Source: a virus
Lineage: Duplodnaviria; Caudoviricetes
Direction: 5' to 3' (one strand)
Virus record (IMG/VR): IMGVR_UViG_3300025913_000019
Length of the DNA stretch: 64,000 nucleotides
This document shows positions 7,280 through 48,093 of the stretch, piece by piece; the stretch's first letter is position 1; each line of letters opens with the position of its first letter. The position numbers and the translations under genes are program-made. Below the pieces are notes generated by a model that made no database searches, had not been told where the DNA came from, and was given only the letters and a program-made list of their open reading frames with translations.

Positions 7280-7538
7280 GGCCAGGGGCAAGCTCGCGGG
7301 CACGAGCCAGCACAAGAAGCAGAAGCACGAGCCCGCTGTCCCCTACAAGCGCCTGACTCCTGACATCCCCAGCCTCCCGATGACAGGAGCAGCTACGAAG
7401 CCCATCGCTGATCCGGCAGCCGCCGAGAAGCACGCAATGAAGGCGCGGGCCGGCATCAACTACAACAAGGGAGGCATCCAGTACCTGTCCGACTTGGACA
7501 TGGCCGAGCAACGCACGGGCGTTCACAAGCGCCGCTAA
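7152..7538 (+). CDS. Basic hypothetical protein (overlaps upstream gene)
   Basis: Lys-rich ORF with C-terminal NYNKGGIQY motif. Confidence 0.65.
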   Translation: MAIIKQYLGKKKKRKPTAAERELAESWEKLKLQHAKPLERGSEARGKLAGTSQHKKQKHEPAVPYKRLTPDIPSLPMTGAATKPIADPAAAEKHAMKARAGINYNKGGIQYLSDLDMAEQRTGVHKRR

Positions 7539-7567
7539 CGCATTCACCAACCACACAGGAGTTCATC

Positions 7568-8224
7568 ATGTCTCAAGCTGCTACCATGAAGGCCATCGAC
7601 GATTCGGGCGCGACCCACGATCAGGTCATCGCCGCCTTCCTCCGCTATATGCAAGGCCCGGACGCAGTACGCGCCCTGCGCCTCGTCCCCATGTCGAAGC
7701 TCGACGCCTTCATGGATCTGACGATGGGGCCCAAGGTCGTGGCCGCCTTCCTCGAACTGGAGACGAAAGCGGATGCGAAGCCGAAGTGGCTCACGGCCAT
7801 GAACGCCTCGGCTCGTGAGCTGCACGAGCGTGAGCAGCGGTATCAGGACGCCGAGCTGATCGAGTGCTTCCTCGCCGTCCTGCTCCAGTACCTGGTCGAT
7901 GAGGACATCGGCTACGGATTCGACCACATCATCGAAGGCAAGTACGGCGGCACCGGCGTCTACAATGGTGGTGTCAGCATCCGCTGCACGGACCTCAATG
8001 GCACGGACCGGCTGAACCTGATCCGTGCCGTCATGCTCGTGGCTTCCCTGTTCGATTCGCGCCTCAGCTCGATGCTGGACCTCGAAGCCATCGAGTTCGA
8101 GCGGGACGGCGACGAGGACTACACGATCCACATCAACTTCTCCGATCTGACGATGACGAATGCCGATCAAGAGCAGGTGATCGCCGCGTCGTTCGCCATG
8201 GACAACGCCTTCTACAAGGTCTGA
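7568..8224 (+). CDS. Hypothetical protein
   Basis: SD CAGGAG. Confidence 0.75.
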   Translation: MSQAATMKAIDDSGATHDQVIAAFLRYMQGPDAVRALRLVPMSKLDAFMDLTMGPKVVAAFLELETKADAKPKWLTAMNASARELHEREQRYQDAELIECFLAVLLQYLVDEDIGYGFDHIIEGKYGGTGVYNGGVSIRCTDLNGTDRLNLIRAVMLVASLFDSRLSSMLDLEAIEFERDGDEDYTIHINFSDLTMTNADQEQVIAASFAMDNAFYKV

Positions 8225-33675: not shown

Positions 33676-34431
33676 ATGATGATTGCACTTGCGATCGCAG
33701 CAGCAACCCACGCGGCACCCGATGCGTGCTCGTGGGCTCAGCCTGGCCGCGATCCTTACCGAACCCGTGGTGAGCTGACGCGCGCCCTGGCCGACATGAA
33801 CATCGATTCGGCCGACAAGGCGCTCATCAAGGACAAGATGGAGCGCGTCGCGTACACCGAGATCGTGTCCATCGGTCGCGACCAGATCGACGGCTACGCG
33901 AACCTGCGCGACATGCACAGCGGTCACAGCACGTGCCATGGCCCTGTCAAGCGCGAGAGCTGGGACGCGAACCACGTCGAGCTCGCGCTCGTCTACTGCG
34001 GCAACGGTCCGACCTGCGTCGCCGTCCCCATCGTCTGCGACAACGTATCGCTGATCGACCGCGTGCCTCACGAGCAGGAGCCGGTGGCCGAGCTGGAGTT
34101 CGCACCGCCGGCTGCGGGCACACCCGTGACTGATCCCGCACCCGCGCCGGTCGAAGATCGCTCGTTCGCATTCGTGCCGGACGTGCCGACTGGCGGCTCC
34201 TACGGTGGAGGCGGCTTCGGCGGCGGTGACTATGGAGGTGGTGGAGGCGGCGGTCCCGTCTGGCCTCCGCACCCGCCCGCATCCGGTCCGGACTGTGGCT
34301 GCAAGCCGCCGCCTCCCGTGTGCCCGCCTCCGCCGCCCCCGATCAGCTCGGTGCCGGAGCCGGCTTCGCTCTGGCTCGCGGTTGCGGGTCTGCTGGTCCT
34401 GCGTTTCGTCAGGAAGATGAAGAAGAACTAG
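33676..34431 (+). CDS. MHFG-family-like PEP-CTERM surface protein
   Basis: Signal peptide; CSWAQPGRDPY..RDMHSG..C..W..ALVYC..C.AVPIVCDNVS; G/P linker; VPEPASLWLAVAGLLVLRFVRKMKKN. Confidence 0.88.
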   Translation: MMIALAIAAATHAAPDACSWAQPGRDPYRTRGELTRALADMNIDSADKALIKDKMERVAYTEIVSIGRDQIDGYANLRDMHSGHSTCHGPVKRESWDANHVELALVYCGNGPTCVAVPIVCDNVSLIDRVPHEQEPVAELEFAPPAAGTPVTDPAPAPVEDRSFAFVPDVPTGGSYGGGGFGGGDYGGGGGGGPVWPPHPPASGPDCGCKPPPPVCPPPPPPISSVPEPASLWLAVAGLLVLRFVRKMKKN

Positions 34432-34465
34432 AGGGTTGTGTCGTCCGATCAACTGGGAGATTCCT

Positions 34466-34657
34466 ATGGCATCCGACATTTGGCAACCGGTCAAGCGAGT
34501 TCCGACCCGTCGTGAAGAAGAGGCAAAGGCCGCCGAGCGCAAGGCGCAAGCTGCTCAGCCTCATCCCGTGCCCGGCAAGCCCGGGTTCTTCATCGACGGC
34601 CAGGGCCGCATGAGCTACAACCCCGATCTCGACAAGAACAAGCAAGCGTACAAGTGA
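34466..34657 (+). CDS. Small hypothetical protein
   Basis: SD GGGAG. Confidence 0.6.
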   Translation: MASDIWQPVKRVPTRREEEAKAAERKAQAAQPHPVPGKPGFFIDGQGRMSYNPDLDKNKQAYK

Positions 34658-34683
34658 GGAGGGACTCAACCAAGGAGTCTCAA

Positions 34684-34881
34684 ATGGCACTCAGCTCTCT
34701 GCTCGTCGTGATCCTCGTTCTCATCGTCATCGGCTTTCTGCTGTGGCTGGTGCAGACGAAGATCCCGATGGACCCGACGATCAAGACCATCATCTATTTC
34801 GTGGTGGTGCTCGCGGTCGTTCTCTGGCTGCTGAACGTGTTCGGCGTCCTCCACGCACTGACCGGCGTCCGCGTCGGATGA
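34684..34881 (+). CDS. Thivi_2564-like two-TM membrane protein
   Basis: LLVVILVLIVIGFLLWLVQTKIPMDPTIKTIIYFVVVLAVVLWLLNVFG. Confidence 0.7.
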   Translation: MALSSLLVVILVLIVIGFLLWLVQTKIPMDPTIKTIIYFVVVLAVVLWLLNVFGVLHALTGVRVG

Positions 34882-34888
34882 TCCACAG

Positions 34889-34897
34889 ACTGTAAAG
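34889..34897 (+). promoter_or_regulatory. Candidate phage promoter motif ACTGTAAAG
   Basis: Intergenic. Confidence 0.6.
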
Positions 34898-34941
34898 ACA
34901 AGGAGGTGACACATGTTATAGTCCAACAACGGAGCTATACC

Positions 34942-35127
34942 ATGAGTCGTTCGTACTACCACCGTCGCCATCGTCAATACTGGCGCACTCCGCATTACTG
35001 GATCACGCTGAACAACACCAAGCCCTGGCGTCAGGCGACTCGTCGCTTCTGTCAGGACCTGGTCAAGGGTCGTCGTGAGCTGGATGATGTGGAGCCGGTG
35101 GTTCAGCCCCTGCCCTACTGGGACTGA
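34942..35127 (+). CDS. Small basic/aromatic protein
   Basis: SD GGAG. Confidence 0.55.
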   Translation: MSRSYYHRRHRQYWRTPHYWITLNNTKPWRQATRRFCQDLVKGRRELDDVEPVVQPLPYWD

Positions 35128-35129
35128 GA

Positions 35130-35138
35130 ACTGTAAAG
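35130..35138 (+). promoter_or_regulatory. Candidate phage promoter motif ACTGTAAAG
   Basis: Intergenic, heads the RNA island. Confidence 0.6.
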
Positions 35139-35291
35139 AAGGAGTACAAGGGCTTCGGCCCCCGTCAACAGGATAGCACCTGGCGAAACGGATGATGAAC
35201 ACGGCAAGCTGAACGTGCGAGTTGAGAAACGCACGGGCAGTTTTCGGGTAGCCACTCCCGATTCTTCATCAACGCCGTTAGGAGCTACACC

Positions 35292-35696
35292 ATGATCGCA
35301 TCGCAACAACCCCTGAACCTGACCGTCAACGTCTCCGGCTTCGTGCCGGTGGATGTGACCCTGCAACCGCTGCCGAGCCCCGCGACCAGTTCCGTGGCTG
35401 CGCCGGCGGTCATCAAGGAAGACGTGGTCCGTCGTGTCAACCTGCGGGACTTCATGTTCAAGCAGGTGGGCAAGTTCGTGACCATCGACTTCGTCAAGAA
35501 CGACGGCACCGACCGTATGCTGAACGGTCGCCTTGGAGTGCGGAAGCACCTGAAGGGCGGCGACAGCACGTTGGCCGATGCCGACAAGCCGTACTTGGTG
35601 GTCTATGACATGAAGGCGAAGGGTTACCGGGCAGTCAACCTGGAGACCGTGAAGGAAGTGCGTGCTCAACGGACGCGCTACACCGTGATCGGCTGA
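35292..35696 (+). CDS. SH3-barrel/WYL-like protein
   Basis: FVTIDFVKNDGTDRMLNGRLG..LVVYDMKAKGYRAVNLETV. Confidence 0.65.
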   Translation: MIASQQPLNLTVNVSGFVPVDVTLQPLPSPATSSVAAPAVIKEDVVRRVNLRDFMFKQVGKFVTIDFVKNDGTDRMLNGRLGVRKHLKGGDSTLADADKPYLVVYDMKAKGYRAVNLETVKEVRAQRTRYTVIG

Positions 35697-35784
35697 TGGA
35701 ATTCCTGTAGGTGAGTAAGCCTGGACCCTCCCTAGCTTATTCGCGCGCACAGGCGGTGGGACTATTGCGAAGGTCCCAACCCCT

Positions 35785-35860
35785 GCTGTCTTAGCTCAGT
35801 TGGTAGAGCATCTGCCTTGTAAGCAGGAGGTCAAGGGTTCGAGTCCTTTAGGCAGCACCA
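35785..35860 (+). tRNA. tRNA-Thr(UGU)
   Basis: 76-nt canonical cloverleaf, loop CTTGTAA, GGTTCGAGTCC, encoded ACCA. Confidence 0.96.
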
Positions 35861-35879
35861 AACAACAAGAGGAGCCACT

Positions 35880-36308
35880 ATGTGGACGTGGAAGAGTGAA
35901 CTGAAGCGCTTCGGCGCAATCGTCGTGGTCGCAGCCGTCGGCATTGTCCTGATGGCCTCGACCACGAAGGCCAAGGCCACCGGCTACATGTACGGCGTGC
36001 CTCCGGGCGTCAAGGTCGACCACGATGTGAGCGGCGCCTTCGACGACACGGTCACGTTCGTGAGCCCGGCAACGGGCATCTACAACGTGACGTTCGAGGC
36101 CACGGACCTCCGTCCCATCAAGGTCGCAACCAAGTTCAAGATGGTGCAGCTGTCGACGACCCTCAAGGACGGCCGGCAGTTCTACAACATCACGCACAAC
36201 CCGGATGCCGCGATCTACGCAGAGCGCGGGCAGGTGTGGACCATCCGCTTCATCGGCACCTCGGCGGAACGCGGCGGCTCCTATTCGCTGCTGATCGATC
36301 CGCAGTAA
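35880..36308 (+). CDS. Secreted beta-sandwich-like protein with FxDx(F/V)-type motif
   Basis: Signal/TM N-terminus; VSGAFDDTVTF; no PEP-CTERM tail. Confidence 0.6.
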   Translation: MWTWKSELKRFGAIVVVAAVGIVLMASTTKAKATGYMYGVPPGVKVDHDVSGAFDDTVTFVSPATGIYNVTFEATDLRPIKVATKFKMVQLSTTLKDGRQFYNITHNPDAAIYAERGQVWTIRFIGTSAERGGSYSLLIDPQ

Positions 36309-36339
36309 GACAAAGGCTGTGCCCGCTGCAGTCCTGGAG

Positions 36340-36519
36340 TCCTAGGCTCCAAAACCCTTCGGGGTAATAGCGGGAGACCGGGAGGCATGCCTCCCGGCAC
36401 CTATTCCGGGGGTGTCCAATGGGGGCCGCTAGTAGGGCGGGGCAAGGTACGAGACGCTGACGCGTTGCTTCCGAGCCCTGTGGCCAAACGCGCCAGGTTC
36501 GAATCCTGGAACCCGACCA
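36340..36519 (+). ncRNA. Structured RNA ending in T-arm plus ACCA (tRNA-like 3' end, no canonical cloverleaf)
   Basis: CCAGG-TTCGAAT-CCTGG-AACCCG-A-CCA; upstream hairpins. Confidence 0.5.
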
Positions 36520-36523
36520 ACCC

Positions 36524-36654
36524 GAGTGCAGAGCTACGGGCCGAGGACCATGGGCCGTAATGGCGGTCACCGAGAACAAGCGGGAAGAAGTTGGTCACCT
36601 GACGGAGACCAGACCGGCGATGCTTGCGCGGCCTCGGTTCGTAGCTCTGCACTC
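36524..36654 (+). ncRNA. Unknown RNA closed by a 23-bp stem
   Basis: 36524-36546 pairs with 36632-36654 (21 WC + 2 GU). Confidence 0.6.
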
Positions 36655-36686
36655 TTGTCCCCCAACCACAAACGAAGGTTCACCAC

Positions 36687-37067
36687 ATGAAGATCAAGCC
36701 CCGCAACGAGCACGTCGTCGTTCGCCGCATCCCCAGCCGTGAGAAGAGCAGCGGCATCATCATCCCGGGCCAGGAAACCGAGCGCGATCTCTTCGCCGTC
36801 ACCGCGGTGGGCCCCGGCGGCTTCACACCGGCCGGCACGCGTGCACCCATCGAGCTCGACGTCGGTCAGCCGATCGTTCCCGGCATGCTCGTCTTCGTCC
36901 GCCCCGGCGACTACGAGATGTTCGACTCGGACCCGAACAGCCCGGGCGACGAAAGCCTGCGCATGGTGATCCCGCAGTCGGCCATCATCGGCGTCGAGGT
37001 CGACGACAACGACCAGCCGCTGATGTTCGCCGAGCCCGCGCAGTCGATGATCGCGACCCTCAACTGA
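36687..37067 (+). CDS. groES: GroES-like co-chaperonin
   Basis: MKIKPRNEHVVVRR..SSGIIIPG..AVTAVGPG. Confidence 0.85.
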   Translation: MKIKPRNEHVVVRRIPSREKSSGIIIPGQETERDLFAVTAVGPGGFTPAGTRAPIELDVGQPIVPGMLVFVRPGDYEMFDSDPNSPGDESLRMVIPQSAIIGVEVDDNDQPLMFAEPAQSMIATLN

Positions 37068-37080
37068 CCAAGGAGCTGCC

Positions 37081-37380
37081 ATGAGCACAACCTGGAAGGA
37101 CGCGCTGGCGGACAAGCCGAGCGTCATCGATTTCGTGCAATCCATCGTCGACCAAGTTCCGACCACGGGCGGCGCCCAGGACGCATTCGAGATGGCGCTC
37201 AACGGCCTGGCGACCTTCGTGCCCGAAGAGATCCAGATCAAGGCCGACAAGTTCGACGCGCTGGTCGACGAAGGCGTCGACGAGTGGGCCGGCTACGAGT
37301 CCGCCATGGCCGAGTTCGAGGACGAGGACGGCGATGACGACTCAGATTCGGACGACGGCGACGAAGACGACGAGGACTGA
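37081..37380 (+). CDS. Small acidic protein
   Basis: SD AAGGAG; D/E tail. Confidence 0.7.
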   Translation: MSTTWKDALADKPSVIDFVQSIVDQVPTTGGAQDAFEMALNGLATFVPEEIQIKADKFDALVDEGVDEWAGYESAMAEFEDEDGDDDSDSDDGDEDDED

Positions 37381-37382
37381 CC

Positions 37383-37661
37383 ATGGGCTGGCGCTCGTGG
37401 TTCGGCCTCAAGGAGCCGGTCCGGTTCATGGATGAGAGCGACGAGAAGGTTCGTGGCGCCCTCACCCTGCTGTCCCAGCTCGGTAGCAACAACGTCCACT
37501 GGAACGACGTGGACGTGATGGCGACGGCGAAGGCCGCGCTGTTCGAGGAACCCAGGTACGCACGCGCGGGCCTGGAACGCATCGCTGCCGCGGTGTCGCC
37601 CGGTGATCTCTTCATCAACGGAGTTGACATCGGCCTCCTGGCCGAGCGCGGCTTGCAATGA
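37383..37661 (+). CDS. Hypothetical protein
   Basis: Coupled start. Confidence 0.6.
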   Translation: MGWRSWFGLKEPVRFMDESDEKVRGALTLLSQLGSNNVHWNDVDVMATAKAALFEEPRYARAGLERIAAAVSPGDLFINGVDIGLLAERGLQ

Positions 37662-37668
37662 GCAACGA

Positions 37669-37708
37669 AGGTACCCGGCACCTGGTTCGATCCCAGGGCC
37701 CGGTATCT
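37669..37708 (+). ncRNA. T-loop-capped minihelix
   Basis: AGGTACC/GGTATCT + GGC/GCC + CCTGG-TTCGATC-CCAGG. Confidence 0.35.
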
Positions 37709-37717
37709 CCGGCAGGG

Positions 37718-37832
37718 TGGAGAGTGACGAAATTGGTAGACGTGCTGCCTTGGCAAGGGTGGTGCCCCTCGGGTCTCGGCCGCCAACTGAGACAATGAGG
37801 ACCGCGTGCTGGTTCGAGTCCAGCCTCTCCAT
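37718..37832 (+). tRNA. Non-canonical type-II tRNA-like gene (GGC loop, about 43-nt variable arm, no encoded CCA)
   Basis: TGGAGAG/CTCTCCA acceptor, Leu-type D arm ACG-AAATTGGTAGA-CGT, T arm GCTGG-TTCGAGT-CCAGC. Confidence 0.6.
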
Positions 37833-37841
37833 TTCTCCGAA

Positions 37842-37850
37842 ACGGTAAAG
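37842..37850 (+). promoter_or_regulatory. Candidate phage promoter motif ACGGTAAAG
   Basis: Intergenic, before structured region. Confidence 0.55.
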
Positions 37851-37857
37851 AAGTAAC

Positions 37858-38075
37858 ATCGCGTTGCAGCGATAGGGCAAGCTGATCGTGCCCTGGTTTG
37901 CGCCTGACCAAATTCGGCGTTCGCGCTCGTAGTGGTCGGCCGTAGTTGACATGTGCCTGGCATGTCTGCGCCTAAGCACTCTGTGCACAGATTAGAGGCC
38001 CGCCGGGTTGGTTGCAGATCCTTGCCGGCGGCCACCTACATGTAGCTTGCGTGCCAGACACGCGAGCCTGATTCC
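37858..38075 (+). ncRNA. Candidate structured RNA
   Basis: Non-coding gap with several stems (37858-73, 37874-94, 37957-64/38050-57, 37997-38033). Confidence 0.4.
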
Positions 38076-38099
38076 CCAACCACAGCCTAGGAGCTGAAG

Positions 38100-38252
38100 A
38101 TGAAGAAGACCCTGTTCTCCGCCGCACTGCTGATCGCGGTCGCCCTCGGTGGCGTCGCCATGGCCCAGGATTCGACGCCGGACGGCTGCATGCCCGGCAA
38201 CGGCGGCTCGGCCCCCATCTGCACCCCGGGCACGGGCCCCGGCGGCAAGTAA
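38100..38252 (+). CDS. 50-aa secreted peptide with two Cys (missing from ORF track)
   Basis: SD AGGAG; MKKTLFSAALLIAVALGGVAMA|QDSTPDGCMPGNGGSAPICTPGTGPGGK. Confidence 0.7.
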   Translation: MKKTLFSAALLIAVALGGVAMAQDSTPDGCMPGNGGSAPICTPGTGPGGK

Positions 38253-38299
38253 AGATCAACGCAGCGAGGGCGAAAGAAGAGTCACCCGCAGTTGCAGTG

Positions 38300-38760
38300 A
38301 GAAGTCCCGCCTCCCCAGGGACGACGTAGTGTCCGAGCAATCGGGCGTGTGTCAAACCATAGGGAACATGGTCGTGTGTCGGCACTCGCCGACGAGAGTC
38401 TGAAGCTGACGGATGTTGGACGGGGGTTCGATTCCCCCCGGCTCCACCACTAGCGCCTGCGTACATGCGGGTGCTAGTGATGGGGCCGACCAGGTTTCGA
38501 CAGCGTTGCTGATGTGGAGGACGACGACTCGCGCGTATGGCCTAGTCTAGCTCAGCGTTACAGAGCCGACAGGGTACAAAACTAACTGCCAACGACGAGC
38601 AATTCGCTCAGGCCCTCGCGGCCTAAGCGCAGAACAGCTGCGGGTTCTACCTAGGCAACTAGGTGTGTACGCAGCCGGGCCGGACACAGCGGATAACCTC
38701 TGCTGTGTGTCTGAGTAAGCCGGGGCCGCAAGGTCCAGGTTAGGGACGGTGGGCTTCGGC
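38300..38760 (+). ncRNA. ssrA: Circularly permuted two-piece tmRNA (outer ends uncertain)
   Basis: Acceptor half ends CGGCTCCACCA at 38449; 5' half GGGGCCG starts 38482; G3-U70; tag ANDEQFAQALAA* at 38588-38626. Confidence 0.92.
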
Positions 38761-38805
38761 TCTCTGCTCCCGAACGTCCGGCCCACCCCTAACAATGAGG
38801 CATCG

Positions 38806-39201
38806 ATGACTGAACTGAAGACCGCACCGGTGGACACGGCCTACGCCGAGATGCAGGCCTACGTCGCCAAGTTGGAAGCCGCCGGCGTCAAGAGCGACAA
38901 CGGCTGGTACCCGATCATGACGGCTCCGTGGGAGATCGAGATCATGATCGGCCGCTGGCAGACGATCGGCAACAAGGAGCCGCAGTTCATCACCTGCAAG
39001 TCGAGCCAGGAGCACGACCCGGGCAACGAGTTCGAGGGCGAAGCCGCCTACGACTACTGGGCGACCGATGACGACACAGCAGGCGTGGTCGACTCGGCGA
39101 TGCCTGATGTCTGGCGTCCCATCTTTCCCCAGCCTGCGTTCATCAACACCTACGAAGACCAGCTGGCCGAACAGGCCGCGGCTGCCGAGGGAGAAGGCTG
39201 A
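38806..39201 (+). CDS. Hypothetical acidic protein
   Basis: SD GAGG; start refined. Confidence 0.7.
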   Translation: MTELKTAPVDTAYAEMQAYVAKLEAAGVKSDNGWYPIMTAPWEIEIMIGRWQTIGNKEPQFITCKSSQEHDPGNEFEGEAAYDYWATDDDTAGVVDSAMPDVWRPIFPQPAFINTYEDQLAEQAAAAEGEG

Positions 39202-39449
39202 TGGGAGTCGTCGTGTTTCCTGGCCACGAAGGTTCGGCGCTCGAAGCTCTGGCAAAGGCGAAGACCGCGGTCGACGAGATCGGCCCGGATGCACGGATCT
39301 TCATCTTCGTCCGCGATCCGAAGAAGCAGGCCACGCGCTCTCTGAGTTCGGAGTTCAATACCATCGATCTCGCAGTCGTGACCGCCTACGTCAACGCATA
39401 TTGCTCGGATCACATGATGCGAGCGCAGGGCGAGGACGGCGACGATTAG
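39201..39449 (+). CDS. Hypothetical protein
   Basis: TGATG overlap. Confidence 0.65.
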   Translation: MGVVVFPGHEGSALEALAKAKTAVDEIGPDARIFIFVRDPKKQATRSLSSEFNTIDLAVVTAYVNAYCSDHMMRAQGEDGDD

Positions 39450-41806: not shown

Positions 41807-42592
41807 ATGACCATCACTGCCAAAGAGATCGGAGAGAACTACCCGCTCTCCATCGACGACGCCAAGGAGTACGCTGGCCGCACCATCGCGAGCCGCGCCT
41901 TCTACCACACCGTCTTCTCCGCCGTCAAGAACAAGCTGCCGCTGTCCGTCGTCCGCATGGGTGATGGCGAGCGTCACCTCTTCATCGACTGCGCGACTGC
42001 TGCCGCCAACAAGGTGTCTGGCCTCCCGGTCGATTCGTTCGACACCGCGTGGCGCACGCGCATGGGCATCGAGGGCATGACCTTCGAGCAGCTCAACGAT
42101 TCGATGCGCGCGTCGATCGCTCTCACCAACTACTTCGGGCCGAACGTCAACGGCCTGATGCAGCCCAACTACAGCGTCTACCCGTGGTACAAGATCCACG
42201 GCAAGGGTCAGCCGCTGGTCGACAACTTCTTCGTCAACGAGTGGGACCTGGAACATCGCACCGCGCTCCTGAAGGCGGCCGGCAATGTCCTGGTGCTGCA
42301 CGCGAACCCGGTGACGGCCATCACGTTCGCACGCCGTGCGCGGGCCTACCTCAACGTCGGCATCCGCCACGTGAGCCTCAAGTCCTGGCGTGATGCCGAC
42401 GCGGCCCTCACGGAGTGCGCGAAGTGGGACTACCCGCTGGTCCTCGTCAGCGCCGGTCCGGCCTCCAAGTGGATCATCCCTGGGATCGCCCGACAAGGCA
42501 AGGTCGCGCTCGACATCGGCAACGCCATGGACCACTGGCTGCTGCTCGAACTCTACAAGGCCGACCCGTCGAAGCTGGACGCCGTCAAGTGA
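41807..42592 (+). CDS. GT-D-fold glycosyltransferase-like protein
   Basis: SVVRMGDGE and LVLVSAGPASK..GKVALDIGN match GT-D (DUF1792) signatures. Confidence 0.75.
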   Translation: MTITAKEIGENYPLSIDDAKEYAGRTIASRAFYHTVFSAVKNKLPLSVVRMGDGERHLFIDCATAAANKVSGLPVDSFDTAWRTRMGIEGMTFEQLNDSMRASIALTNYFGPNVNGLMQPNYSVYPWYKIHGKGQPLVDNFFVNEWDLEHRTALLKAAGNVLVLHANPVTAITFARRARAYLNVGIRHVSLKSWRDADAALTECAKWDYPLVLVSAGPASKWIIPGIARQGKVALDIGNAMDHWLLLELYKADPSKLDAVK

Positions 42593-43324: not shown

Positions 43325-43333
43325 ACTGTAAAG
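43325..43333 (+). promoter_or_regulatory. Candidate phage promoter motif ACTGTAAAG
   Basis: Intergenic. Confidence 0.6.
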
Positions 43334-43401
43334 AAGACAAGTGCACGTTTGCAAACACGCATAGCACTTCTTCACCACACAACGCAAGAGGTTACACCAA
43401 C

Positions 43402-45672: not shown

Positions 45673-46028
45673 GCGCGCAGCGTCCGTTCGGCTACCTGTA
45701 CGAGAACGTCGGCGGCGCCATTGTCTTCCATCGGGAGGGTAGCTGCAACAGGGACGTTCTGAATGCGGACATGGAAGCCGCCGCCATGTACCCGAAGGGA
45801 CATGTGCTGACGCCTCTGTTCACGCAACCAGTGGTCACACCGGAAGAAGAAGAGCTGCTGCTCGCCACCGGTCGTCTCTGGAACGACTTCTGCCAGCTGC
45901 CTGACAGCGCGGCATCTGACACCGACGACTTCTACCGAGCTGTCCACGAACTGCAGCGCATCATCGCACTTCGTGGCATGCGACGTGCCGTGCCTGCCCT
46001 CTTCACCCAGCACAAGGATCGGACATGA
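45669..46028 (+). CDS. Hypothetical protein
   Basis: ATGA overlap. Confidence 0.65.
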   Translation: MSAQRPFGYLYENVGGAIVFHREGSCNRDVLNADMEAAAMYPKGHVLTPLFTQPVVTPEEEELLLATGRLWNDFCQLPDSAASDTDDFYRAVHELQRIIALRGMRRAVPALFTQHKDRT

Positions 46029-46456
46029 AGACCATCATCTACGACATCGACGGCTGCTGCATCGACTCGACGTTCCGCCACGAGCACGTGCAGGTCGACT
46101 TCAAGCGCTATCTGGAACTGCACCCGACTGACAAGCCGATCATGCAAGGCGTGCTCGTCTACACGCTGCTGCTCGAGCTCCAGGACTTCCGGCACGTCTT
46201 CATCACCGGCCGCGGCGAGGAAGAGCGTGATTCCACGACCGCGATCCTCGAGCGCCTCTTCCACGGCAAGACCTTCGAGCTGCTGATGCGGCCGGCCGAT
46301 GATCGACGGCCTGACGTCGAGATCAAGGGCGAGCTCATGCAGCAGAACGGCATCTGGCCCAAGGACGTGTTCCTGGCCTTCGATGATCGTCCGGTCATGG
46401 TCGAGTTCTACCGGAGCCTCGGCATCGTCGCCTACCAAACCGCGGAGGGTTACTGA
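46025..46456 (+). CDS. HAD phosphatase (polynucleotide kinase 3'-phosphatase-like)
   Basis: IYDIDG, FITGR, LLMRPADDRRPD..K, AFDDR. Confidence 0.85.
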   Translation: MKTIIYDIDGCCIDSTFRHEHVQVDFKRYLELHPTDKPIMQGVLVYTLLLELQDFRHVFITGRGEEERDSTTAILERLFHGKTFELLMRPADDRRPDVEIKGELMQQNGIWPKDVFLAFDDRPVMVEFYRSLGIVAYQTAEGY

Positions 46457-46457
46457 C

Positions 46458-46685
46458 ATGAAGCTGCCTCAAGACCCGGCTCGCAGGTTCCTGCTGGCCG
46501 CACTCGTCGCCTACATGCTCTTCGTCGTTGGCTGGCTGTGCTTCTACGCCGGCCCTGACCTCAAGCTGCCGCCGCACCTCTTCATGTGGCAAGTGATCGG
46601 CCTCATCGTCGTCCTCGTCATCTACGTGCTGCTGATCTGGCGCGAGGTCGTGGCGGATCGCAAGGAGCGCGAGGGCGATGCCTGA
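46458..46685 (+). CDS. Small two-TM protein
   Basis: Hydrophobic helices. Confidence 0.65.
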   Translation: MKLPQDPARRFLLAALVAYMLFVVGWLCFYAGPDLKLPPHLFMWQVIGLIVVLVIYVLLIWREVVADRKEREGDA

Positions 46686-46726
46686 CGTGACCCTCATTTT
46701 GATCCTCCACTGAAGGAGAGTGACCG

Positions 46727-47146
46727 ATGATGAAACTCGACAAGCTGGTTCGTCTCAGCGAACGGATGCGCCGGCTCAACAGCCGCCTGGTCAAGGTCGT
46801 CGGCTACAAGACCGGCACCGGCAAGGACGGCATCCCGACCGCGGTGGCGCGCACCTACACGCCCCTCGAGTACAGCCTCGGCGGCCGCCGCATCATGCGT
46901 GCTCGGGACAAGAACAAGTACACGTCGTCGATCAAGTTTCTCGACCGCGGACTCCACGTCCGTGTCTCGTGCTCGTGTCCCGACTACATGTACCGGTGGG
47001 AGTACGCCAACAACCTGGTCGGTGCCTCGCACATCATCTACGGCAACGGTGAGGCGCCGGACGAGACCAACCCGCAGTACAGGCCCGGTCTTTGCAAGCA
47101 CCTGCTTGCGCTCCGGACCTTGGTGAAGGAGCAGCACGGGATATGA
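46727..47146 (+). CDS. SWIM zinc-finger protein
   Basis: VSCSCPDY..GLCKHLLAL. Confidence 0.8.
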   Translation: MMKLDKLVRLSERMRRLNSRLVKVVGYKTGTGKDGIPTAVARTYTPLEYSLGGRRIMRARDKNKYTSSIKFLDRGLHVRVSCSCPDYMYRWEYANNLVGASHIIYGNGEAPDETNPQYRPGLCKHLLALRTLVKEQHGI

Positions 47147-48093
47147 CGAGCAACTACACCCACAGCGCTACGTTCGCGTCGCTGAAGGGCATCAAGGAAG
47201 AGCTGACCGAGAACTACACGACGTTCCAGCTGCTGACGACCCTCGACTACTTCATCGAGAACGCGATCGATCCGATCATCAGCGCCCATCCGGACCTGAC
47301 CGACGTGTACTTCTCCAAGGTCATCGCCTACCAGTTCGACAACCCGAACGTGAAGTGCAGCCGCAATGAGAAGGCGTCGCTGCCGCAACTTCTGTTCAAC
47401 GCGGTGACGACGCAGGGACGACGCAAGCGGGAGTTCCAGCGCAAGATGCTGCTCAACCGCGGGCTGCTCTTCGGACTCGTCTCGGTCTTCCTCAAGACTG
47501 TAAATACGTATCGGAAGTTGCACAGCCCGCACGTGAAGTTGCGTCGGGCTCAGCGACTGGTACTTCGTCAGCTTGCCGAGGAGCGGACGGGCTCGTCCCA
47601 CATCTTCCCTGCGATCCTGCAGGTGGAGTTCTGGATTCAGCACGCCTACCACTTCAAGGAACTGATCGTCCAGAAGTACACGCGCCTGGCGTCGAACCAG
47701 GCGCGCAAGACATACATGGACGTCAACTGCGACAAGAGCCTGGACGACATCATCCAGGTGTACATGGTCTTCCTCGCCAAAGCGATCGACCGATGCGACA
47801 GTCGGCAGGGCGTGCTGACGGAGTACATCAAGTACTGGTTCTACTCGGCGAAGTCCGAGATCATGAAGGAGGTAGCCAAGGACGGGCTCAACACGAGTTA
47901 CGATCAGCTGCTCGAATCGGGCATCGACTCGCAGTCGGTTGATCCTGACACCCAGTTCGAGGCGGCGCAGCACATCTGTGCGACCGCCAAGGGACTCGAT
48001 CCAACGGGAGCGTATCGGTTTGCGCTCCACATCCCCGAGCACTACAGCAACGCGGATCTCCGCAAGCTGCAACTTTTCACCACAACCAACTGA
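47143..48093 (+). CDS. Divergent sigma70-like transcription factor
   Basis: DDIIQVYMVFLAKAIDRCDSRQGVLTEYIKYWFYSA aligns with region 2 DLIQEG..L.KAVDKF..RG..FSTYA.WWIRQA. Confidence 0.55.
   Translation: MTSNYTHSATFASLKGIKEELTENYTTFQLLTTLDYFIENAIDPIISAHPDLTDVYFSKVIAYQFDNPNVKCSRNEKASLPQLLFNAVTTQGRRKREFQRKMLLNRGLLFGLVSVFLKTVNTYRKLHSPHVKLRRAQRLVLRQLAEERTGSSHIFPAILQVEFWIQHAYHFKELIVQKYTRLASNQARKTYMDVNCDKSLDDIIQVYMVFLAKAIDRCDSRQGVLTEYIKYWFYSAKSEIMKEVAKDGLNTSYDQLLESGIDSQSVDPDTQFEAAQHICATAKGLDPTGAYRFALHIPEHYSNADLRKLQLFTTTN
47497..47505 (+). promoter_or_regulatory. Internal candidate promoter ACTGTAAAT
   Basis: Formed by rare ACT GTA AAT codons upstream of SSB/UvsX. Confidence 0.45.

Follow-up and report, generated by a model that had tools for sequence, protein, structure and literature searches.

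The stretch shown here belongs to a 64-kb window (the whole of the DNA analysed, 64,000 nucleotides, whose coordinates are used throughout) and is the accessory region for tRNA and tmRNA genes in a soil jumbo phage, a member of the phiRSL1/BcepSauron group. Assignment to this group follows the large terminase, which is 45-54% identical to those of phiRSL1, BCSR5, BcepSauron and Motura. The host is probably a betaproteobacterium with a two-piece tmRNA. [quoted passage not shown] GroES was already embedded in this array; in BcepSauron, it lies inside the tRNA array between tRNA-Tyr and tRNA-Asn. The island contains one decoding tRNA, a genuine two-piece tmRNA and three non-decoding tRNA-derived modules that are conserved, referred to as Elements A, B and C. 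All annotated genes and RNA elements of the island lie on the + strand.

Protein genes and structured RNAs of the island

The WYL_2-like (Sm-like beta-barrel) protein of 134 amino acids (35292-35696) matches phrog_2267 at 1.5e-14 and Pfam WYL_2 at 23.5 bits, below the cut-off of 26.7, and its gene is syntenic in L018 and L019, two metagenomic relatives. The preliminary description had listed a WYL-like gene, which is present, but as this gene and not as the 92-amino-acid frame at 37383-37661, for which no family is found. A 142-amino-acid protein with a hydrophobic N-terminus (35880-36308; GC3 0.89) has no Pfam or PHROG family, and the protein database returns only its own cluster. The GroES-like co-chaperonin (126 amino acids, 36687-37067) matches Cpn10 at 31.1 bits (cut-off 21.1) and phrog_3188, consistent with its earlier identification, and has homologues of 55-61% identity in syntenic contigs. 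An acidic, gp5.9-like protein of 99 amino acids (37081-37380) shows a borderline match of 25.4 bits (cut-off 24.5) to PF25708, the family of the T7 gp5.9 RecBCD inhibitor. Its PHROG matches to RecBCD inhibitors are weak, and the gp5.9 match may be inflated by its acidic, low-complexity tail. A 50-amino-acid protein with a signal-peptide-like N-terminus (38100-38252; GC3 0.92) is conserved in a further relative, L032.

The decoding tRNA is a canonical class-I tRNA-Thr(UGU) with an encoded CCA (35785-35860; Rfam tRNA, 71.2 bits) and is 80% identical to the BcepSauron tRNA-Thr(UGU). The permuted tmRNA lies at 38387-38626 and matches Rfam RF04321 at 87.5 bits, where the gathering score is 47; ARAGORN and Rfam both find the canonical tRNA and the permuted tmRNA reported previously. 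The tmRNA acceptor piece (38367-38449, from RF04321) comprises a T-arm at 38422-38438, the 3' strand CGGCTCC, A73 and CCA. In the Rfam alignment, it is followed by an intervening hairpin (38450-38481) that is removed from the permuted precursor. In L032 and L019, longer inserts take the place of this hairpin; the one in L019 is about 626 nt long and contains remnants of HNH-like ORFs. The coding piece (38482-38720, from ARAGORN and Rfam) carries the 5' acceptor strand GGGGCCG, with a G3-U70 pair, and the downstream helices; its tag frame (38588-38626) encodes ANDEQFAQALAA and ends in a stop. Compensatory changes occur in both L019 and L032, where acceptor pair 2-71 shifts from G-C to U-A and a helix shifts from CUGCG/CGCAG to CUCCG/CGGAG. 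Permuted tmRNA precursors are cut by tRNA-processing enzymes (PMC11915505). No SmpB is found in a near-identical 91-kb contig that overlaps only about half of the window, so the tmRNA presumably depends on host SmpB. Upstream of the tmRNA lies a highly conserved block (38255-38366), a candidate phage promoter, processing region or precursor part, with identical runs of up to 33 nt in L019 and L032 and 70-80% identity otherwise. In another relative, L001, the 5' border of the acceptor piece is the exact site of a tRNA-shaped insert.

The island also contains at least two other long-stem RNAs, as had been proposed: a structured leader and a 131-nt RNA. The 5' leader of the WYL_2-like gene (35128-35291) opens with the motif GTAAAGAAG (35133-35141), includes a hairpin followed by a U-rich tail (35244-35270), which resembles an attenuator and forms a terminator-like site, and has zero variable sites among strains. 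It is 85% identical to L018 over 166 nt, whereas the GroES of that relative is only 61% identical, and a consensus fold over three relatives retains conserved pairs together with 5 compensatory pairs. The window has 3 copies of the GTAAAGAAG motif where 0.15 would be expected, and the motif also opens the leader in L018. The second copy (37845-37853), in the wider context GAAAC-N-GTAAAGAAG, is a candidate phage promoter or processing signal, and in L032 a tRNA-like gene (from 429) follows the motif (413-421) after 7 nt.

A conserved multi-hairpin leader (36309-36399) has a homologous block in L018 (3940-4054) that precedes a true tRNA-Ser, with the hairpins kept by different sequences; a strain SNP at 36394 turns one of its G-C pairs into G-U. 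The 131-nt RNA (36524-36654) begins 4 nt downstream of Element A's CCA and is closed by an uninterrupted 23-bp helix with two G-U pairs (36524-36546 with 36632-36654; fold of the region, z = -3.76). Here too a strain SNP, at 36633, converts G-C to G-U. The hairpin-rich spacer at 37855-38099 includes a hairpin kept in L019 (37857-37874) and a hypervariable end with indels among strains (38040-38075).

The tRNA-derived modules

Scanning both strands of the whole 64-kb window for a 5-bp stem with a TTCRANN loop identifies 9 perfect T-arm sites. Five of these, all + strand, cluster at 35.8-38.4 kb (35833, 36493, 37681, 37808 and 38422), far above the background expectation of ~0.08 in 2.6 kb, and the remaining four are dispersed in coding DNA. 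The cluster of five therefore indicates three extra T-loop modules besides the tRNA and tmRNA, at 36493, 37681 and 37808, the same number as in the preliminary description.

Element A (36400-36519) is an orphan tRNA 3' part in which a perfect T-arm (36493-36509) is followed by AACCCG-A-CCA. It has no canonical D or anticodon arm, the partner test finds no convincing 5' acceptor strand, and there is no Rfam tRNA match at E<=10. Element B (37669-37708) begins 8 nt past a stop codon and is a T-loop hairpin of 15 bp (7+3+5) with a canonical T-loop cap (T-arm 37681-37697), resembling an acceptor/T-arm minihelix. Neither element has a homologue in L018, L019 or L032, so any role of A and B is lineage-specific and dispensable over longer times.

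Element C (37718-37831) is a complete class-II cloverleaf, with all helices intact in the stem table, that is unable to decode normally. Its acceptor is paired at 7/7 Watson-Crick positions, including U1-A72, and ends in U73 with no CCA; shuffling produces a perfect 7-mer partner in 1% of cases. The element has a Leu-type D-arm, a 5-bp anticodon stem, an 8-nt anticodon loop (TTGGCAAG), a 45-nt two-helix variable arm and a canonical T-arm. ARAGORN calls it only with introns allowed, and it has no Rfam tRNA match. A positional homologue with different acceptor and T-stem sequences is found in L019, whose GroES is only 55% identical. Further tRNA-shaped RNAs in relatives, with 8-, 9- or 5-nt anticodon loops, are found at L032 429-510, at L019 2861-2970 and in the L001 insert.

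Turnover and constraint

The region is remodelled in relatives by cassette replacement and HNH homing endonucleases. Between strains about 97% identical, a 90-nt class-II tRNA(UGU) replaces the class-I tRNA-Thr(UGU), and a 114-nt tRNA-shaped insertion is present. In L018, an HNH ORF is followed by the 3' half of a tRNA-Thr; in BcepSauron, tRNA-Leu 5' fragments adjoin an HNH gene; and HNH-like remnants split the tmRNA of L019. WYL_2, tRNAs, GroES, GT-D and HAD_PNKP are carried by the syntenic relatives L018 and L019.

Among co-circulating strains, 8/921 non-coding sites vary against 28/598 third codon positions (p = 2.7e-6). Non-coding variation is equal to that of first plus second positions, the level of non-synonymous sites, and 5-fold below that of third positions, so these stretches look constrained, an estimate drawn from few SNPs in recombining strains. 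For Element A, 5.6 variable sites are expected and 0 are seen; for Element C, 5.5 are expected and 1 is seen. Of 5 SNPs in predicted stems, 2 keep pairing and 3 break it.

Outside the island, the + strand encodes the HAD-type phosphatase domain of a polynucleotide kinase-phosphatase (46025-46456; PF25109, 56.7 bits; phrog_415, 9.6e-27), exactly where the preliminary description had located one. The gene has no kinase domain and is syntenic in L018 and L032 whatever their RNA content, making it a conserved backbone gene. No family, and hence no ligase family, is found among its scanned neighbours, two of the three downstream ones being represented only by longer overlapping ORF calls (46299-46685 and 47092-48093). 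Its link to the RNA island is weak.

Possible roles of the non-decoding modules

With ACA making up only 6% of Thr codons, the earlier argument against codon supply, that only one decoding tRNA is present, is reasonable. The explanation we favour, if tentatively, is that the island is a remodelled tRNA/tmRNA region whose tRNA-derived modules were preserved because they give host tRNA-processing enzymes a handle. The modules would be derived from ancestral-array tRNA genes of Leu type and of Pro or Ser position. They appear to have been retained because they still carry features that these enzymes recognise, which would be the acceptor/T-stem stack, the T-loop/D-loop elbow and the CCA end. A promoter scan of 34400-39300 gives one sigma-70-like match (34895-34922), upstream of the island, and a terminator scan of the same interval gives one + strand site, inside the WYL_2 leader; neither count is above shuffles. 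The island lacks sigma-70 promoters and, except for the leader hairpin, coding-strand intrinsic terminators, so that long precursor transcripts are probable. These would be processed at the handles in A, B and C by RNase P, RNase Z and the CCA-adding enzyme, and at the 23-bp helix by RNase III; the products would be the tRNA and the pieces of the tmRNA, together with stable small RNAs and mRNAs fit for translation, that of GroES among them. One tRNA-like Y RNA, whose acceptor has 7 bp, is a substrate of RNase P and acquires CCA (PMC4201824). On the other side, simpler RNase E or RNase III sites could serve processing, and a full cloverleaf with a 45-nt variable arm is not obviously required for it. 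The lineage restriction of A and B, the small SNP sample and the RNA-library coverage described below also count against this reading.

Alternatively, the non-decoding tRNA-shaped RNAs might be decoys or sponges for the nucleases with which host immunity attacks tRNAs (anticodon nucleases, PARIS AriB, retron or Septu effectors and CCA-tail cutters, for example), absorbing or misdirecting them while tRNA-Thr restores decoding and the tmRNA rescues stalled ribosomes. Phage tRNAs counter and neutralise tRNA-cleaving defences (PMC10264068, PMC11555353, PMC11464382, PMC13096335). Element C fits such a role in retaining every tRNA helix and the elbow, yet with an abnormal anticodon loop, as do the tRNA-shaped RNAs with odd loops in L032, L019 and L001. 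Quick turnover between relatives combined with constraint in the strain cluster resembles an arms-race locus, one UGU anticodon occurs on two co-circulating tRNA bodies, and the gp5.9-like gene lies within the island. However, Elements A and B lack the anticodon arm, the part most known nucleases recognise, and the phosphatase is a backbone gene with no kinase or ligase partners. Descent from a tRNA array accounts for the same features: the island is simply the clade's tRNA-gene region, and half-tRNA remnants in relatives are by-products of HNH insertions. Moreover, in the one RNA library with this phage, exactly matching contigs cover the WYL_2 leader and gene only (one spans 35160-35322, from leader into gene), and none matches the tRNA-like elements. 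We regard this alternative, the decoy or protective function that the preliminary description had proposed for the island RNAs, as less likely than retention for RNA processing. Less probable again is that A, B and C are functionless recent debris of homing-endonuclease-driven cassette replacement, still undecayed. The half-tRNAs beside HNH genes in L018 and BcepSauron are debris of this kind, A and B are confined to this lineage in the comparison with L018, L019 and L032, and A has no 5' partner. Neutral debris would, however, sit poorly with the low non-coding variation, above all in Element A, with the intact helices of Element C (6/6), and with its positional homologue in a relative as diverged as L019.

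An 8-nt anticodon loop is a hallmark of frameshift-suppressor tRNAs. Element C and the 8-nt-loop tRNA-like gene of L032 might therefore be charged and read four-base or shifted codons, leading to +1 frameshift suppression or recoding of phage genes. The two loops have a core UGGC in common, and the L032 element encodes CCA. Nevertheless, no essential gene with a frameshift was noticed in the window, and the loop of Element C can alternatively fold as a 7-bp stem with a triloop. Element C also fits no known synthetase identity set, because of its U73, U1-A72, missing CCA and 45-nt variable arm, and decoding of this kind is very unlikely. A last proposal, that the elements are Y-RNA-like (YrlA-type) tRNA mimics tethering a Ro60/Rsr protein to RNA decay enzymes, is close to refuted for the window. 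No YrlA match is found there at E<=10, and its elements do not show the permuted T-AS-D order. No Ro is found in the near-identical 91-kb contig, and no TROVE protein in this contig or in four related phages. What suggested this proposal is the syntenic non-coding region of phiRSL1. There, two units run T-arm, closed acceptor, D-arm, and one of the two matches Rfam YrlA; its 32 bits (E 7e-5) fall far short of the gathering score, 69.

RNA genes and tRNA-derived modules of the island

The island, an RNA-rich part of the window spanning about 3.6 kb (35130-38760), belongs to a known type of locus, the phage tRNA/tmRNA cluster; what is new is its set of conserved non-decoding tRNA-derived modules. 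With default settings, ARAGORN calls two RNA genes in the 64-kb window: a tRNA-Thr(UGU) at 35785-35860 (+ strand), matched by Rfam RF00005 at 71.2 bits against a gathering score of 29, and a permuted tmRNA on the same strand at 38357-38717. Rfam RF04321 places the latter at 38387-38626, with 87.5 bits against a gathering score of 47 over the full model (1-213), and shows that the T-arm/CCA piece precedes the 5' acceptor piece. The tag reading frame, ANDEQFAQALAA, has hydrophobic residues at its end and is followed by a stop. The acceptor strands GGGGCCG and CGGCTCC give a G3-U70 alanine identity pair, which stays constant in two more distant metagenomic relatives, L019 (GUGGCCG/CGGCUAC) and L032 (GGGGGUG/CACCUCC), while adjacent pairs are altered. 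The helix 3' of the tag, read from the sequences, changes from CUGCG/CGCAG to CUCCG/CGGAG among relatives. On all sequence criteria, the tmRNA gene is functional. No SmpB was found in a 91-kb near-identical contig (covering window 30.4-64 kb) or in four related phages, and the tmRNA partner is presumed to be host SmpB.

The beta_tmRNA model (RF01850) reaches 69.7 bits, under its gathering score of 84. In its permuted order (T-arm, CCA, spacer, 5' acceptor) the gene can be aligned to ssrA loci of Azonexus and Dechloromonas, with about 72% identity, and the tag codons are present in Rhodocyclales ssrA genes, so the tmRNA appears to resemble the betaproteobacterial form in order and tag. Because both features match Rhodocyclales ssrA, we infer that the host is probably a betaproteobacterium with a two-piece tmRNA. 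Phage-borne two-piece tmRNAs have already been described: tmRNA occurs in about 2.3% of phage genomes, with 53 distinct two-piece forms, and the marine methylophage Melnitz likewise carries a permuted ssrA in a lytic phage (PMC9004378). Reported phage two-piece tmRNAs are mostly marine or aquatic and alpha-type, whereas that of the window comes from soil and rhizosphere and is betaproteobacterial-like. No riboswitch is seen upstream of it. In the block upstream of the tmRNA (38255-38366), stretches as long as 33 nt recur unchanged in L019 and L032, two relatives that otherwise differ by 20-30%. A 10-bp pairing of this block with the coding piece was rejected, as it is absent in L019, where the covariation is that of a local helix. 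The Ro-binding motif GNCGAA(N)G, present there as a single copy, was likewise set aside as matching chance expectation.

Both strands of the window were scanned for T-arms, defined as a TTCRANN loop on a 5-bp stem. Five of the nine perfect sites lie on the + strand at 35833 (the tRNA), 36493, 37681, 37808 and 38422 (the tmRNA), and the remaining four are scattered in coding DNA. Because five sites cluster on the + strand, the three extra T-loop modules, termed Elements A, B and C, are real and far above background. ARAGORN, Rfam and the T-arm scan together thus bear out the inventory of the preliminary description, which had listed one canonical tRNA, a permuted tmRNA and three T-loop modules. 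None of the three Elements gives an RF00005 match at E<=10 in a 5-kb Rfam scan or a default ARAGORN call. Low-threshold ARAGORN calls are mostly noise and were used only for an intron-mode call on Element C.

Element C (37718-37831) has all tRNA helices: a perfect 7-bp acceptor (U1-A72), a Leu-type D-arm, a 5-bp anticodon stem, a 45-nt variable arm with two helices and a canonical T-arm. It departs from a standard tRNA in that variable arm and in an 8-nt, rather than 7-nt, anticodon loop (TTGGCAAG), and it has U73 and no CCA. A perfect 7-mer acceptor partner arises by chance in 1% of shuffles. L019 2861-2970 is its positional homologue, with different acceptor and T-stem sequences, and the hairpin CGCGTTGCAGCG found 3' of Element C recurs behind it; the two were compared by hand and script because MAFFT and RNAalifold gave no alignment. 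In L032, the intergenic position of Elements B and C is occupied by an 82-nt tRNA-like gene (429-510) with a canonical D-arm, T-arm and CCA, whose anticodon loop is also 8 nt (ARAGORN anticodon 'ggcc').

Elements A and B lack D and anticodon arms. Element A is a perfect T-arm (36493-36509) that runs on into AACCCG-A-CCA and lacks a convincing 5' strand, and its conserved multi-hairpin leader precedes a normal tRNA-Ser(UGA) in L018, a 238-kb contig from another distant relative. Element B (37669-37708) is a 15-bp hairpin with a T-loop cap. A further 131-nt RNA (36524-36654), closed by a 23-bp helix, begins 4 nt past the CCA of Element A. A low-threshold ARAGORN call of a 'tRNA-Arg with 73-nt intron' at 36360-36519 was rejected, since its 6/7 acceptor requires a UUCG hairpin that is still a hairpin in L018.

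Constraint and transcription signals

Constraint was assessed in six strain sequences, with the tRNA swap described below and indels excluded. Variable sites account for 8 of 921 non-coding positions against 28 of 598 third codon positions (Fisher p = 2.7e-6), and for 11 of 1196 first plus second codon positions. At the third-position rate, Element A shows 0 changes where 5.6 are expected, Element C 1 against 5.5, and the leader of the WYL_2-like gene 0 against 7.7. Two SNPs in stems convert G-C to G-U and three break a pair. Because the sample is small and the strains recombine, this constraint is suggestive rather than conclusive.

Judged by GC3, the whole window is coded on the + strand. 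A scan of 34400-39300 gives a single sigma-70-like promoter match, upstream of the island at 34895-34922, and a single + strand terminator-like site, an attenuator-like hairpin within the leader of WYL_2; shuffled sequence yields no fewer of either. Three copies of the motif GTAAAGAAG, in the context GAAAC-N-GTAAAGAAG, are present in the window where 0.15 would be expected (35133-35141, 37845-37853 and 43328-43336, + strand), all of them intergenic. In L018 the motif is conserved ahead of the leader, and in L032 it stands 7 nt 5' of the tRNA-like gene, making it a candidate phage-specific promoter or processing signal. Long precursors are likely, given the sparse promoter and terminator matches and the position of GTAAAGAAG before RNA genes and leaders.

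The WYL_2 leader (35128-35291) is 85% identical in L018 and its structure is conserved in L019. The U-rich tail of its attenuator-like hairpin could alternatively pair with upstream GAUGAUGAA, and the leader may be a cis-regulatory RNA. One rhizosphere metatranscriptome contains exact contigs over 35160-35322 and 35590-35747 only, which could reflect either transcription of the WYL_2 leader and gene or DNA carried over. The remaining metatranscriptome pieces are tRNA and tmRNA of other organisms.

Proteins, relatives and turnover of the RNA genes

The neighbouring proteins named in the preliminary description are present. GroES (36687-37067, + strand; phrog_3188) is confirmed, with a Cpn10 match of 31.1 bits against a cut-off of 21.1 that covers residues 2-64 only. 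The reported WYL-like gene (35292-35696, + strand) falls under the Pfam WYL_2 cut-off (PF10902, 23.5 against 26.7 bits) and appears related to WYL_2 at the family level through phrog_2267 (1.5e-14); phage homologues of the protein show no linkage to tRNAs, of which L003 has none. The PNKP-type HAD phosphatase (46025-46456, + strand, 143 aa) has a solid domain match (PF25109, 56.7 bits against 27.6), but its link to the RNA island is weak: it consists of the HAD domain alone, without a P-loop kinase domain, and, since the gene order common to relatives includes it in L018, it is a backbone gene. The downstream ORFs scanned (46299-48093, two as longer overlapping calls) match no Pfam family at all. 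Measured against T4-type Pnkp and Rnl repair, the phosphatase is present, and kinase and ligase are missing from the span scanned.

The island also encodes, on the + strand, 142-aa and 92-aa proteins of no family and a 50-aa protein with a signal-peptide-like N-terminus. Neither of the first two has a match in the protein atlas, and the sole homologue of the 142-aa protein is its own cluster. An acidic 99-aa protein (37081-37380) matches PF25708, the T7 gp5.9 RecBCD inhibitor family, at a borderline 25.4 against 24.5 bits, the match falling on an acidic low-complexity tail; it is possibly a DNA-mimic anti-defence gene inside the island. One strain carries a 6-nt indel in this tail. Upstream of the island, a 251-aa protein (33676-34431) ends in a PEP-CTERM-like motif (20.2 bits, cut-off 20.7), and so faintly suggests that the host has an exosortase.

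In its large terminase the phage shows 45-54% identity to phiRSL1 (Ralstonia), BCSR5, BcepSauron and BcepSaruman (Burkholderia) and Motura (Achromobacter), all jumbo phages of betaproteobacterial hosts. A GT-D-like protein (41807-42592) is 40% identical to RSL1 ORF259, which adjoins the phiRSL1 tRNA genes. In BcepSauron, ten tRNA genes form an array (115.5-121.1 kb) in which GroES separates tRNA-Tyr from tRNA-Asn, and the tRNA-Thr(UGU) of this phage is 80% identical to that of the window. These three matches (ORF259, the BcepSauron array and tRNA-Thr) identify the island as the tRNA-gene region of the clade, with GroES as an old resident.

A near-identity DNA search of the island against 50,697 phage records gives no match, and related contigs were reached through GroES homologues or, for L032, through the conserved block upstream of the tmRNA. 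L001 and L020-L024 are strain variants (DNA identity 96-99.97%). GroES is 61% identical in L018 and 55% identical in the 56-kb L019, and DNA identity to L032 is roughly 70-80%. WYL_2, tRNAs, GroES and GT-D follow one another in this order in both L018 and L019, with HAD_PNKP after them in L018. L017, a relative by GT-D, has no RNA genes, and a metagenome scan with a GroES profile returns, apart from the window's own strain, only unrelated GroES loci that carry no tRNAs. DNA of the phage is present in rhizosphere and soil metagenomes from many studies, the locus being represented in soil runs of 15 studies.

The RNA genes turn over among strains and relatives. In strains about 97% identical, the class-I tRNA-Thr is swapped flank to flank for a 90-nt class-II tRNA that keeps the UGU anticodon, and both alleles are found in independent soil runs. 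Class-II tRNA(UGU) genes of 88-90 nt occur at L001 5085-5174, L020 3085-3174, L021 2777-2866 and, conserved at greater distance, L018 4541-4628; they have a long variable arm, a Ser/Tyr-type D-loop, A73 and CCA. To our knowledge, no class-II Thr tRNA is known in bacteria. L001 further carries a 114-nt insert (7745-7858) between window positions 38366 and 38367, right on the 5' boundary of the acceptor piece of the tmRNA. It comprises a hairpin and a tRNA-shaped RNA with a 7-bp acceptor, a D-arm, a 4-bp stem with a 5-nt loop and a 6-bp arm without the T-loop motif.

In L018 (4628-5065), the class-II tRNA(UGU) is directly followed by an HNH-type ORF and then by a class-I tRNA-Thr 3' half that comprises T-arm, acceptor strand and CCA, an arrangement that looks like a homing-endonuclease cassette carrying its own tRNA. 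The BcepSauron HNH gene sits between two tRNA-Leu genes, and two tandem partial copies of the tRNA-Leu 5' part (GGCGAAATTGGTA...; L013 4095-4180, BcepSauron 116094-116179) lie between tRNA-Leu(CAA) and this gene. In L019 the two tmRNA pieces are separated by a spacer of about 626 nt (7280-7905), where the window has 32 nt; it contains out-of-frame ORF fragments with an HNH-like motif, suggesting that a homing endonuclease has decayed within a permuted tmRNA gene. Together, the tRNA swap and the L018, BcepSauron and L019 cases indicate that homing endonucleases reshape these RNA genes. SegB, likewise a homing endonuclease, reshapes RNA genes in T-even phages and is linked to tRNA loci and anti-defence (PMC13096335).

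Like the island, the tRNA clusters of T4, T5 and BcepSauron hold tRNAs among small ORFs in one direction and are remodelled by homing endonucleases; BcepSauron shares with it GroES inside the tRNA array. The T4 tRNA cluster also contains two stable non-tRNA RNAs of obscure role, co-located with the tRNAs as in the island. Unlike these clusters, the island retains only one decoding tRNA, its other positions being taken by non-decoding tRNA-shaped or partial modules, and it includes a two-piece tmRNA.

Possible roles of the non-decoding modules

We tentatively favor the reading that the island is a tRNA/tmRNA region that has been remodelled: its modules, derived from tRNAs, would act as handles for RNA processing, and RNase III would be likely to cut at the 23-bp helix. 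The features retained by the Elements would be exactly those recognized by RNase P, RNase Z and the CCA-adding enzyme. [quoted passage not shown] The preliminary description had instead proposed RNA decoys and rescue factors that would counter defences targeting tRNAs or stalling ribosomes. Its functional frame is that of phage tRNAs acting against PARIS, retron effectors, PrrC-type anticodon nucleases and Septu, and it matches the arms-race pattern and current literature, in which phage tRNA variants restore or protect translation under tRNA-cleaving immunity (PMC11464382, PMC11555353, PMC10264068). The known cases are decodable tRNAs with altered loops or higher dosage, whereas Elements A, B and C are non-decoding. 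A decoy role for them is conceivable but less likely than that of processing handles. Mycobacteriophage DS6A offers a precedent for an inhibitory non-decoding T-arm RNA: its tag-less tmRNA, reduced to the acceptor/T-arm domain, reportedly inhibits the tmRNA of the host upon expression in E. coli (PMC11915505). Elements A and B resemble this RNA, yet they carry no tmRNA-specific sequence, and Element B, which has a third-pair G-U, differs in its 15-bp helix and missing CCA. More speculative still is a clade-wide version, in which soil jumbo phages would maintain fast-turnover non-decoding RNAs of the A, B and C types as decoys or inhibitors of immune nucleases or trans-translation, and would swap class I and II bodies of tRNA(UGU) to escape recognition.

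That the modules are neutral relics of tRNA genes is unlikely, being disfavored by the constraint data. Quadruplet decoding by unusual tRNAs seems very improbable. Identity with Y RNAs is the least credible reading: YrlA Y RNAs (RF02553) are tRNA mimics with a T-arm, D-arm and acceptor-like stem, as are the modules here, and the syntenic region of phiRSL1 alone gives a sub-threshold YrlA match of 32 bits, but the window has no YrlA match at E<=10, its elements lack the permuted order of T-arm, closed acceptor and D-arm, and the 91-kb near-identical contig contains no TROVE (Ro60) gene, which would be expected on the same strand at a distance of up to about 4 kb.

Phage tRNA clusters have lately come to be seen as anti-defence loci, a role tied so far to decoding tRNAs only. 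The island is a natural case in which an array has shrunk to one tRNA and a tmRNA while keeping non-decoding tRNA-shaped modules, apparently under constraint. If these are processing handles, the phage would have its long precursors matured by the RNase P, RNase Z and CCA-adding enzyme of the host; if they are decoys, they would form a new class of RNA counter-defence. On either reading, the locus provides defined, testable RNAs and shows homing endonucleases reshaping RNA genes.

The phiRSL1 segment contains two unannotated tRNA-like units on the - strand (L012 4709-5192; phiRSL1 189208-189691), the second of which is the 32-bit YrlA match. Both have the order T-arm, 3' acceptor strand, hairpin, 5' acceptor strand, D-arm, with seven complementary acceptor pairs each. 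A third tRNA, at phiRSL1 188801-188924, carries a 62-nt insert in its anticodon arm.
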